From Escherichia phage 308Ecol101PP: a DNA stretch of 64,000 nucleotides. The translations under genes were made by a program, and so were the position numbers. The stretch lies in sequence record OR062945.1. One strand, given 5' to 3'. Positions 624-30,890 of the stretch are shown one piece after another. The notes beneath the pieces are model-generated. The model saw only the letters and a program-made list of their open reading frames with translations, made no database searches and was not told the DNA's origin. The first letter of the stretch is position 1; every line of letters starts with the position of its first letter.

Positions 624-879
624 AGTGTACGGGTATGACTCTACTATTCATAAATGCATTTATTGCGATAATGCGAAACGATTGCTGACTGTTAAGAAAC
701 AACCATTCGAATTCATTAATGTTATGCCAGAAAAAGGTGTGTTCGATGATGAGAAAATTGCTGAGCTTCTGGTTAAGCTTGGTCGTGAATCACAAGTTGG
801 ATTGACTATGCCTCAAGTGTTTGCTCCTGATGGAACTTCGATCGGTGGCTTTGACCAACTACGAGAATATTTTAAATGA
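616..879 (+). CDS. nrdC: NrdC thioredoxin/glutaredoxin
   Basis: 87 aa starting MFKVYGYD with a CIYC redox motif; matches T4 NrdC in length and sequence from memory; start moved from track ATG 601 to ATG 616. Confidence 0.85.
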   Translation: MFKVYGYDSTIHKCIYCDNAKRLLTVKKQPFEFINVMPEKGVFDDEKIAELLVKLGRESQVGLTMPQVFAPDGTSIGGFDQLREYFK

Positions 880-1232
880 CATATTCATTAAATCTTAAAG
901 ATTTCCAAGATGTATACGAAGTTTGTGCCAATGAACTTGGTCCTGATGCTCCAACTATTATTGAAGTTTTAAATGTGCTCCCTTCATCATTAGCTTACGA
1001 AGCCAAATCATGTGGTTGGAACGACACTGTCGTTCGTGATGACCTTTACGTCCTGATGAACGATATGATGGTTAAAAAGGCAGAACCGGTTGCACCAATG
1101 GTTACCATTACCGTTGAAGAATATAATCGCCTGCAAGCCATTGAAGAGCTTCTGTGGAACATTGAATGTGACCTGCCATCCGGACTAGAATCCTGGATTG
1201 ATTATGAAGAGCTCAATAAACTCCGGGGTTAA
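876..1232 (+). CDS. hypothetical protein
   Basis: 118-aa ORF, start overlaps nrdC stop; acidic. Confidence 0.45.
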   Translation: MTYSLNLKDFQDVYEVCANELGPDAPTIIEVLNVLPSSLAYEAKSCGWNDTVVRDDLYVLMNDMMVKKAEPVAPMVTITVEEYNRLQAIEELLWNIECDLPSGLESWIDYEELNKLRG

Positions 1233-1360
1233 ACCGTGGTATTCGGCTCGATGGGAGACAGTCGAGCCAGACGTCGAAACAGTTTACAATGACGAAGAAA
1301 CGTGTTATGATGAACCTTCAATAAATGAATTAATTGATATGGAAATGGGAAGAGATTATT

Positions 1361-1531
1361 ATGCAAGTTAAATTATTGTACCGTTTATTAAAAAATGGCA
1401 AGCATGATTGGTATTTGCTTATTAAAACCGATCCGAATTTTTTCTCTGGACAACCATTTACAGTTCGTCCTACTAAACGTCAGCTTCGCAAAGCTAAACG
1501 TTCCCATCGTAACTTTTATAGAGAATATTGA
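1361..1531 (+). CDS. small basic protein with C-terminal RPTKRQLRKAKR tail
   Basis: Track ORF 1334..1531 begins at TTG; first ATG at 1361; the C-terminal motif recurs in three other small ORFs in the window. Confidence 0.4.
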   Translation: MQVKLLYRLLKNGKHDWYLLIKTDPNFFSGQPFTVRPTKRQLRKAKRSHRNFYREY

Positions 1532-1532
1532 T

Positions 1533-1946
1533 ATGAATATTTCTGAAACTCGCGGTAAATGGTTCAAGATTGTTAAAGAAGACGAAGAACTCCAAGATAA
1601 GTTTCCTGAATTAAAGAAAGATACGATCATCAAGGTAATTGGTACTACTACCGAAGATGGTTATGGCGACCATGGCATTATCGAAGTGATGTTGAACACA
1701 GGTGAGAAACTTTGCATCTATGACCGTGATACTTCTCTTTGGTGCTTCTGGGAATCCCATTCAATAGATGAACTCGAAGAAATTGACCAAGTAGTTTGTG
1801 ATGGTGGACTTGGCGAATTCGAAGGTGAACGTATTTCTTATGCTTTAGCTAAATTAGCCGCCCAAGAAAATAATGACGGTTATGAAGGTAATCTGATGCA
1901 AGCCGCAGCGGAATACATTGAATATTTAGAAAGACGTTTAAGTTAA
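1533..1946 (+). CDS. hypothetical acidic protein
   Basis: Track ORF 1395..1946; internal ATG at 1533 follows the stop of the preceding ORF. Confidence 0.45.
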   Translation: MNISETRGKWFKIVKEDEELQDKFPELKKDTIIKVIGTTTEDGYGDHGIIEVMLNTGEKLCIYDRDTSLWCFWESHSIDELEEIDQVVCDGGLGEFEGERISYALAKLAAQENNDGYEGNLMQAAAEYIEYLERRLS

Positions 1947-1955
1947 GGGCTTATT

Positions 1956-2135
1956 ATGAAAACTGCATTATTTTTTGGCGAAAGAACAAACGGTCAAAAA
2001 TCTTGGAAATTTGTTATAATTGGTGCTCCAAACAATCCGAACATGAGGACTTCAATCATTTCGGTAACACGTCCTACTAAAAGAATGATTCGCCAATACA
2101 AACGTTTCCATCGTGACTTTTATAACATTTATTAA
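1956..2135 (+). CDS. small protein with C-terminal RPTKRMIRQYKRFHRDFY tail (not in ORF track, 59 aa)
   Basis: Hand-translated ATG 1956 to TAA 2133-2135; its 3' end is about 75 percent identical at DNA level to the 3' end of 1361..1531. Confidence 0.4.
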   Translation: MKTALFFGERTNGQKSWKFVIIGAPNNPNMRTSIISVTRPTKRMIRQYKRFHRDFYNIY

Positions 2136-2137
2136 AT

Positions 2138-2145
2138 TATAAATA
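2138..2145 (+). promoter_or_regulatory. T4-type late promoter (TATAAATA) upstream of gene 49
   Basis: Exact TATAAATA about 29 nt upstream of the gene 49 ATG. Confidence 0.5.
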
Positions 2146-2168
2146 CCCTTATCTAATATGGTAAGGGT
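2145..2168 (+). promoter_or_regulatory. inverted repeat that can sequester the gene 49 ribosome-binding site
   Basis: Arms ACCCTTA (2145-2151) and TAAGGGT (2162-2168); the downstream arm contains the Shine-Dalgarno sequence. Confidence 0.45.
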
Positions 2169-2173
2169 TTATT

Positions 2174-29376: not shown

Positions 29377-29405
29377 GTTTACTTCTCCAGTAGTTGTGTT
29401 ATTAT
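29377..29405 (+). promoter_or_regulatory. early promoter (GTTTAC, 17 nt, TATTAT) inside a 12-bp inverted repeat
   Basis: Arms CTCCAGTAGTTG (29385-29396) and CAACTACTGGAG (29414-29425); the downstream arm contains the Shine-Dalgarno sequence of the next gene. Confidence 0.5.
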
Positions 29406-29431: not shown

Positions 29432-29749
29432 ATGAAAACCATCGATTGTAAAGCAGAATTTAAGATTTTTTATCACGGTTCAAGTAGTTCAGCTAACATC
29501 GAAAACATGCTTTGTCCTCCTGAGGAAACAGGAGTTCTGTCTGAAACCGGACGTAAGAAAAACTTGGATCGTGTATTCTTTACTGAAGATATCGGTTTAG
29601 CAAAGATTTATGCAGGACGAGCAGCACGCTCTTATGGAGGTGAACCACGTCTCTATCGAGTAATTTCTCCGGTAGACGTAGTTCAAATGAATGATACTAA
29701 AGGTGCTACAGTTTATCACGCTGAATGGGCATTTTGTGAGGAAATATGA
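29432..29749 (+). CDS. hypothetical protein
   Basis: 105-aa ORF. Confidence 0.45.
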   Translation: MKTIDCKAEFKIFYHGSSSSANIENMLCPPEETGVLSETGRKKNLDRVFFTEDIGLAKIYAGRAARSYGGEPRLYRVISPVDVVQMNDTKGATVYHAEWAFCEEI

Positions 29750-29937
29750 GCAAATTAACTAAAGTTACTTTTATAGGTTGGTTTAAAAGCGGTGAGATGT
29801 TCACTAAAGATATCATGTTATCAGGTGATCGCGAAGAAATCGAGTGGGTTACGGTACAACTTGCTGAAGTGAACAACGCATTAGTTAAAGCATTTGTTAA
29901 TGACGAGAAAGTTTTTGAAGCTGATTTCAGAGGATAA
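29746..29937 (+). CDS. dmd: Dmd-like antitoxin (inhibitor of host RnlA/LsoA RNase toxins)
   Basis: 63 aa with pattern FIGWFKSGEMFTK...LAEVNNALVKAF, which resembles T4 Dmd as I remember it; sits between 41 and 61. Confidence 0.65.
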   Translation: MSKLTKVTFIGWFKSGEMFTKDIMLSGDREEIEWVTVQLAEVNNALVKAFVNDEKVFEADFRG

Positions 29938-29938
29938 T

Positions 29939-30151
29939 ATGTATTCAACTGTGTTTAAACCATCAACATACGAATTTGCATCAACTACACAATGGAAAGC
30001 TCTTATTCTGGAAGGATGGGAACTAATGATGGACTGTGAAGCATCTGAAAAGTTTCCGCACGGCAAAGTGGACTTCGTTAAATTTGCTGTACGTCCGACT
30101 AAACGACAGATTCGTCAAGAAAAACGCAAATTTCGCAAAAGTTTAAAATAA
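29939..30151 (+). CDS. small protein with C-terminal RPTKRQIRQEKRKFRK tail
   Basis: Track ORF 29894..30151; ATG 29939 follows the dmd stop; third member of the RPTKRQ-tail family. Confidence 0.4.
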   Translation: MYSTVFKPSTYEFASTTQWKALILEGWELMMDCEASEKFPHGKVDFVKFAVRPTKRQIRQEKRKFRKSLK

Positions 30152-30153
30152 CT

Positions 30154-30183
30154 GTTTACAAGCACCACATACTGTGTTACTAT
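30154..30183 (+). promoter_or_regulatory. candidate early promoter (GTTTAC ... TACTAT)
   Basis: 18-nt spacing. Confidence 0.4.
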
Positions 30184-30211: not shown

Positions 30212-30580
30212 ATGAAAAAATTAATCGCTTTAGCAATGGTATTTGGATTAACCGGATGTGGTGCCCATGGCTTTATCCCTAATAACGTTGGCCAATTGAT
30301 TTACAATCCGAATGTTAAACAATATGAACAACCTAAAGTTGAAGTGGAAGACCCGGTTACTGTAGGTAATCGAATGATTCAAGCTGATGCCCATGCTCAA
30401 CGTTATCGTGACTCTGATACTGTAGCTGTGTCAAAGGAACAGCGCGTTAAAGAACATTGCTTACAGGCTACTGAAATCGCATTCATTCGCTATGTTGAAA
30501 CAACCGGTAAAGAGCCTACCCAGAAACAAATCGCGAATAACTACGTCCAGTGTATTGAACGTTTAAACAAATTTAATTAA
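30212..30580 (+). CDS. putative lipoprotein
   Basis: Signal peptide with lipobox LTGC (MKKLIALAMVFGLTGC). Confidence 0.55.
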   Translation: MKKLIALAMVFGLTGCGAHGFIPNNVGQLIYNPNVKQYEQPKVEVEDPVTVGNRMIQADAHAQRYRDSDTVAVSKEQRVKEHCLQATEIAFIRYVETTGKEPTQKQIANNYVQCIERLNKFN

Positions 30581-30641: not shown

Positions 30642-30890
30642 ATGGAATTATTCGTGGCTAGTTCAGTAGCAGTTTTAATCGCAGGTATTGGTTCAATCAT
30701 CATTTACATGTTGCCTTGGGTAATCGCACTTATTCGTGGCACAAAAAGCACAACAGCAATCTTCTTTGTATCTTTACTCTTTAACTGGACGATGATTGGT
30801 TGGATTGGAACTTTAATTTGGTCTATTGTTGCCGAAAAGAAATCTGCTCAGCAGCCTCAACAAGTAATTATTATTCGCGAAAAAGAATAA
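30642..30890 (+). CDS. hypothetical inner-membrane protein
   Basis: 82 aa with two hydrophobic helices. Confidence 0.5.
   Translation: MELFVASSVAVLIAGIGSIIIYMLPWVIALIRGTKSTTAIFFVSLLFNWTMIGWIGTLIWSIVAEKKSAQQPQQVIIIREKE

Follow-up and report, generated by a model that had tools for sequence, protein, structure and literature searches.

The ToxN inhibitory factor A (TifA) of phage RB69 neutralizes the type III toxin ToxN (eLife 2022, PMC9391042; NAR 2023, PMC10853763), and most of the work of Guegler et al. (NAR 2023, PMC10853763) was performed with this RB69 protein. Our search of the literature on the TifA mechanism found no primary work later than these two papers. [quoted passage not shown] Its Pro-Thr-capped basic α-helix, and not a disordered tail, binds RNA: for RNAs of 15-45 nt, the KD of synthesized TifA-RB69 ranges from 2.3 µM to 360 nM, and the P53A/T54A and K55A/R56A/R59A variants lose both RNA co-purification and ToxN neutralization (PMC10853763). 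The N-terminal sheet and a loop of ~20 residues are described as facing ToxN and as adapted to individual homologues of it (PMC10853763), the published ToxN-TifA interface being derived from medium-confidence AlphaFold models together with genetics. The authors consider the helix as a common RNA-binding module, with variable regions tuning the target specificity (PMC10853763).

In phage T4, dmd and tifA form a two-gene operon with a promoter upstream of dmd, and a further promoter is noted downstream of tifA (PMC9391042). The two genes are co-transcribed, and the operon lies within an "anti-TA island" (PMC9391042) that also holds adfA (61.2), which counters DarTG. Both products neutralize host endoribonuclease toxins, RnlA being the target of Dmd and ToxN that of TifA; overexpressed dmd fails to overcome toxIN, and tifA alone succeeds (PMC9391042).

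The tifA gene of phage 308Ecol101PP

We analyzed a 64,000-nt stretch of phage 308Ecol101PP (hereafter the window), in which the ORF at 29939..30151 and its surroundings comprise the following features:

29378..29405 (+), promoter-like (G)TTTACT-16-TATTAT with TG (consensus scan; context AAGTTTACTT...TGTTATTAT), candidate early promoter of ORF040c-dmd-tifA
29432..29749 (+), RB69ORF040c homologue, 105 aa, putative first cistron; PHROG 2110 (unknown function)
29746..29937 (+), dmd, antitoxin against RnlA/LsoA, gene immediately before tifA in the operon; Pfam PF17587 (E 4e-21) and RB69 annotation
29929..29934 (+), Shine-Dalgarno sequence AGAGGA of tifA, read from the sequence, in the 3' end of dmd, 4 nt before the ATG
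29939..30151 (+), tifA, orthologue of RB69 gp61.4, ATG ORF encoding the 70-aa ToxN inhibitory factor A
30089..30148 (+), motif VRPTKRQIRQEKRKFRKSLK, Pro53-Thr54 helix cap and basic α-helix, the RNA-binding element, assigned from AlphaFold2, published variants, and conservation
30155..30183 (+), promoter-like TTTACA-17-TACTAT (consensus scan), 3' of tifA and 5' of imm.1, putative 3' boundary of the dmd-tifA unit

The present analysis establishes the identity of the gene, its motif, its synteny, its predicted fold, and its family membership. The 70 codons of 29939..30151 encode MYSTVFKPSTYEFASTTQWKALILEGWELMMDCEASEKFPHGKVDFVKFAVRPTKRQIRQEKRKFRKSLK, a product 100% identical to RB69 gp61.4 (NP_861728.1) and to the TifA-RB69 sequence given in Table S2 of PMC10853763. 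At the DNA level, tifA differs from its RB69 counterpart by two nucleotides, one at a synonymous third position and one in the stop codon (TAA vs TAG). The 1.3-kb neighborhood of the gene shares 97.8-98.2% DNA identity with RB69 (97.8%) and other Mosigvirus phages, and the whole 64,000-nt stretch is, judged by its sequence, that of an RB69-like Mosigvirus. Pfam analysis of the product reports DUF7279 (E 3.5e-20, 72.1 bits) and PHROG analysis family 2375 (E 1.4e-29). The protein is ~57% identical to the T2/T4-type TifA, and TifA-like sequences are found in 639 phage records, mostly of T-even-like phages. A longer version of 85 aa, starting with a TTG at 29894 and overlapping dmd, was discarded in favor of the ATG at 29939, since the Shine-Dalgarno sequence, the RB69 annotation, and the experimentally used protein all fit the latter. 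On these matches, 29939..30151 is tifA (formerly 61.4), an already characterized phage anti-toxin gene, and nothing in the sequence of the locus contradicts this identity. The practical value of the assignment resides in annotation, since Pfam and PHROG give the family as of "unknown function" and most sampled GenBank records with a TifA-like sequence still say "hypothetical protein" for tifA. Among the phage records with such a sequence, one (H94, PV390659.2) carries the label "DNA polymerase" at this place, apparently through misannotation.

The C-terminal end of TifA is formed by VRPTKRQIRQEKRKFRKSLK, of which the motif quoted in the preliminary description, VRPTKRQIRQEKRKFRK, covers residues 51-67 (nt 30089..30139). 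This segment carries R52-P53-T54-K55-R56...R59...K62-R63...R66, and 10 of the 19 residues from R52 onward are K or R. Positions R52, T54, K55, R59, K62, and R66 do not vary among 17 family members, and P53 and R63 hardly do. The AlphaFold2 model of TifA (mean pLDDT 78.6) comprises three β-strands (residues 2-6, 27-33, and 43-49) followed by a helix (residues 55-69) with a pLDDT of about 90, the confidence being lowest over residues 10-25, and agrees with the published topology in its strands, its helix, and this low-confidence stretch. Since the published P53/T54 and K55/R56/R59 variants lose function, the RPTKRQ tail is the RNA-binding element, defined by experiment, of a known counter-defense protein. 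A profile search of PDB sequences returned no match at E<=1, and Foldseek, given the TifA model, retrieved nothing from the PDB below E 2.5.

The dmd neighborhood

The dmd TAA stop codon occupies 29935-29937 and the tifA ATG begins 1-2 nt later, which agrees with the preliminary description, where the third protein carrying the motif had been placed immediately downstream of dmd. A functional link with Dmd had also been raised there, in the form of co-expression or interaction. Co-transcription is indeed already established (PMC9391042), whereas Dmd and TifA are not reported to interact physically, and neither activity depends on such a contact.

The RB69 genes run in the order 41 – ORF041c – ORF040c – dmd – gp61.4 – imm.1 – imm – sp – 61.2 … 61. 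In the window, the stop codon of ORF040c overlaps the start codon of dmd (ATGA), and the only promoter-like plus-strand sites that the consensus scan places nearby are those at 29378-29405 and 30155-30183, their count not exceeding the shuffled expectation. From this overlap and the position of these two sites, we infer that ORF040c, dmd, and tifA form a three-cistron unit in RB69-like phages, both this operon and its precise promoter being predictions for 308Ecol101PP. ORF040c probably opens the unit, with its translation probably coupled to that of dmd by the ATGA. As the T4 operon is described as dmd and tifA alone, ORF040c may be an addition of the RB69 lineage; placed as it is, it is also a candidate for inclusion in the "anti-TA island". 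Pfam, NCBIfam, and PDB sequence searches return nothing for it. A resemblance to small ADP-ribosyltransferases finds no support in these searches, and we make no such claim.

In RB69-like phages, the interval from tifA to sp holds imm.1 (30212..30580, +; lipoprotein-like, DUF5481) and imm (30642..30890, +; superinfection immunity), both of which have similar T4 genes according to the RB69 record. A GTTTAC-type promoter-like sequence stands before each of them.

Two short DUF7279 members beside pin

The preliminary description had noted the same motif in a pair of proteins encoded near gene 49, some 28 kb away. The region concerned is organized as follows:

1361..1531 (+), short DUF7279 paralogue, RB69ORF089c homologue, 56 aa, directly upstream of pin; DUF7279 E 1.1e-14, PHROG 3272 E 5.8e-27, JS09 annotation
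1533..1946, pin; Pfam Inhibitor_I24 E 3.4e-47
1956..2135 (+), short DUF7279 paralogue, RB69ORF087c homologue, 59 aa, between pin and gene 49; DUF7279 E 1.8e-14, PHROG 3272 E 1.8e-30

Both short proteins, referred to below as ORF089c and ORF087c, contain the RPTKR motif. A six-frame scan of the window finds RPTKRQ only in tifA and at 1334..1531, and RPTKRM at 1956..2135, so that the distance of 28 kb was given correctly. The DUF7279 scores of TifA, ORF089c, and ORF087c (72.1, 54.5, and 53.8 bits, respectively) all exceed the gathering score of this Pfam family (PF23945; 24.5 bits). A custom HMM, built from the three window ORFs and seven published TifA homologues and run against the 964 stop-to-stop six-frame segments, retrieves the three proteins at E 2e-28 to 5e-17 and, in the window, no further DUF7279 member below E 0.5. 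Pairwise BLASTP aligns TifA with the two short ORFs at E 8e-7 and 5e-5, over 14-19 helix residues only, while ORF089c and ORF087c are full-length paralogues of each other (36% identity, E 4e-11). Taken together, the DUF7279 scores, the BLASTP alignments, and the HMM scan place the kinship of the three ORFs far beyond chance. In PHROG, TifA falls into phrog_2375 and the short pair into phrog_3272, with weaker cross-matches linking the two, and no NCBIfam model matches any of the three. The family is a small one: when 1.84 billion cluster representatives (50% identity) were searched with a profile, only 26 scored E<=1e-3, nearly all of 60-130 aa and displaying [RK]PT[KR][KR]Q. We found no paper naming DUF7279, and the word "paralog" is absent from both TifA papers (PMC9391042, PMC10853763).

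The AlphaFold2 model of ORF087c, the sole short paralogue modeled, has a pLDDT of 88 and exhibits strands at residues 2-9, 15-22, and 31-36, followed by a helix (residues 42-58) after P40-T41. The predicted topology, a three-stranded sheet and a C-terminal helix, is therefore common to TifA and ORF087c. Given the DUF7279 membership of the three proteins, their positions, and this shared predicted fold, the earlier view of a dispersed family, as opposed to a local duplication, is borne out. A BFVD search with the ORF087c model retrieves uncharacterized phage proteins only (best E 0.018, TM up to 0.82). The connection between strands 1 and 2 counts 5 residues (10-14) in the ORF087c model vs ~20 (7-26) in that of TifA, and ORF087c is thus devoid of most of this stretch. 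Both short paralogues lack the N-terminal region and long loop of TifA, to which a role in recognizing ToxN has been attributed, as well as its synteny with dmd.

The two short ORFs are, by their substitution patterns, genuine genes: among four Mosigvirus genomes, ORF087c has a dN/dS of 0.04-0.09 with dS up to 0.85, indicating strong purifying selection, and the ORF089c protein is identical, the differences being all synonymous. ORF087c-like sequences are present in 358 phage records (Mosigvirus, some Tequatrovirus, and Dhakavirus). The T4 pin-49 region contains no DUF7279 member at E<=0.01, and 41 nt separate pin from gene 49 in this phage.

What these genes do may be approached through their likeness to TifA. 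Since the helix has been viewed as a common RNA-binding module and the variable regions as tuning the specificity, ORF089c and ORF087c would most simply be TifA-like RNA-binding adaptors with different protein partners. Alternatively, the three DUF7279 genes might be redundant ToxN inhibitors whose dispersal merely raises dosage. Dosage does matter, as T4 escapes from plasmid-borne toxIN through dmd-tifA amplification (PMC9391042), and redundancy would also suit the PT-capped basic helix motif present in all three proteins and the predicted fold common to TifA and ORF087c. However, outside the helix, to which the BLASTP alignments are confined, the short paralogues retain almost nothing of TifA, and the strand 1-2 stretch mostly missing from ORF087c belongs to the TifA region that faces ToxN according to the published work. 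Their charge differs too, the N-terminal part being acidic in TifA (pI 5.1) and basic in the two paralogues (pI 9.7 and 11.1). Moreover, in the tested homologue panel, made up of proteins of 73-98 aa that are more TifA-like, six already neutralize no tested ToxN or TenpN (PMC10853763). Redundancy is therefore improbable, and we retain the reading of the short paralogues as adaptors with other partners. It is possible, if still tentative, that ORF089c and ORF087c act as second and third TifA-like counter-defense factors, which would keep the RNA-binding helix as a "glue" and trap other host RNA-targeting defense nucleases with β-sheet surfaces of their own; other type III toxins (such as TenpN or CptN), divergent ToxN clades, or unrelated RNases may be the candidate targets. 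If this were true, the RNA-dependent toxin inhibitors of RB69-like phages would form a small multigene family distributed over two accessory-gene islands. With the tifA finding itself already known, these two conserved short paralogues beside pin are the only element that is modestly new.

Other features of the nrdC-pin-49 accessory region can be mentioned. Just upstream of 49.1 and the short pair, the RB69ORF091c homologue (876..1232, +; 118 aa) has no Pfam match, and phrog_3402 ("antitoxin from a toxin-antitoxin system") matches its C-terminal half (residues 64-118) with E 1.2e-32, which suggests that this region may also hold anti-TA genes. Among the four Mosigvirus genomes, dS reaches 0.15 in pin and 0.09 in ORF089c; the value of ORF087c (up to 0.85) is several-fold higher than both, which suggests that recombination has left a mosaic boundary between pin and ORF087c. 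Lastly, an inverted repeat, ACCCTTA ... TAAGGGT (2140..2173, +), ends a few nucleotides before the gene 49 start codon and is annotated as a putative terminator in other Mosigvirus records; presumably, it resembles the T4 hairpin reported to regulate gene 49 translation.

Action against ToxN and comparison with known systems

Regarding function, ToxN neutralization, RNA binding, and the mutational need for the motif are drawn from the literature on the identical RB69 protein. The 29939..30151 gene needs no fresh explanation, its motif being the RNA-binding helix by which T-even phages beat ToxIN abortive infection. We hold with high confidence the combined reading in which tifA is an early counter-defense gene, TifA traps ToxN on RNA, and the short paralogues would be adaptors. 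In such a scheme, tifA would be transcribed early, probably together with ORF040c and dmd, from the upstream promoter. Phage-induced host shut-off would free ToxN, the endoribonuclease of the type III toxin-antitoxin system, from its toxI RNA antitoxin. The TifA helix would bind RNA with little sequence preference, while the face formed by the sheet and the loop would contact ToxN. TifA, ToxN, and RNA would then assemble, mainly on 16S rRNA, into a large ribonucleoprotein complex; as ToxN would be inert inside it, phage transcripts would survive and abortive infection would fail.

TifA could also be conceived as coating or chaperoning RNA non-specifically, so as to protect it from any RNase, with no dedicated protein target. 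The basic helix indeed shows similar affinities for RNA, ssDNA, and dsDNA that are unrelated in sequence (PMC10853763), and the motif is the only part strongly common to all DUF7279 members. Such a coating activity, however, would hardly account for the selectivity observed: the T2, T4, T6, and RB69 TifA proteins neutralize ToxN at least 81% similar to E. coli ToxN but not distant ToxN or TenpN, and the six other homologues mentioned above neutralize none of the tested toxins. In addition, TifA co-precipitates ToxN, and ToxN point mutants at K111, Y115, and L118 escape TifA, all of which makes coating without a dedicated target very improbable. The natural antitoxin of ToxN is itself an RNA and some phages escape ToxIN with a toxI-like RNA, and yet the chance that the active product is a toxI-like pseudo-antitoxin RNA instead of the 70-aa protein, or that the ORF is spurious, is practically negligible. 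Indeed, a recoded tifA with 46 of 85 codons changed is reported under the heading "TifA is a protein inhibitor of ToxN" (PMC9391042), chemically synthesized and purified TifA binds RNA and amino-acid substitutions abolish its function (PMC10853763), the protein sequence is kept across 57%-identical orthologues, and no Rfam family matches anywhere in the 64-kb window. The reading of TifA as a protein that traps ToxN on RNA is hence the one with which the known systems are compared below.

The closest of these is RB69 TifA itself (gp61.4; NP_861728.1; UniProt Q7Y5A0 according to PMC10853763), which has the same sequence, dmd-adjacent position, PT-capped helix, and predicted fold as the 308Ecol101PP protein, the two nucleotide differences being silent and the protein-level difference nil. 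The TifA proteins of T4, T2, and T6 (gp61.4, 85 aa) share the dmd-tifA locus, the VRPTKRQIRQ motif, and the anti-ToxN function, with 56-57% identity. They differ by a C-terminal extension of ~15 aa (…LEKQFVTCDYAEILK), which is absent from the TifA of both 308Ecol101PP and RB69. The Dmd protein (T4 gp61.5), encoded in the same operon and "anti-TA island", is like TifA small and early, and neutralizes a host endoribonuclease toxin. However, it belongs to an unrelated sequence family (PF17587) and directly inhibits RnlA, for which it is not known to need RNA, whereas TifA requires RNA as a third partner. Finally, the authors of PMC10853763 drew an analogy with the HIV-1 Vif-APOBEC3-RNA "molecular glue". 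With sequence and fold unrelated to those of TifA, this resemblance is one of mechanism only: in both cases, a viral antagonist depends on RNA for engaging a host antiviral enzyme and rendering it inactive.
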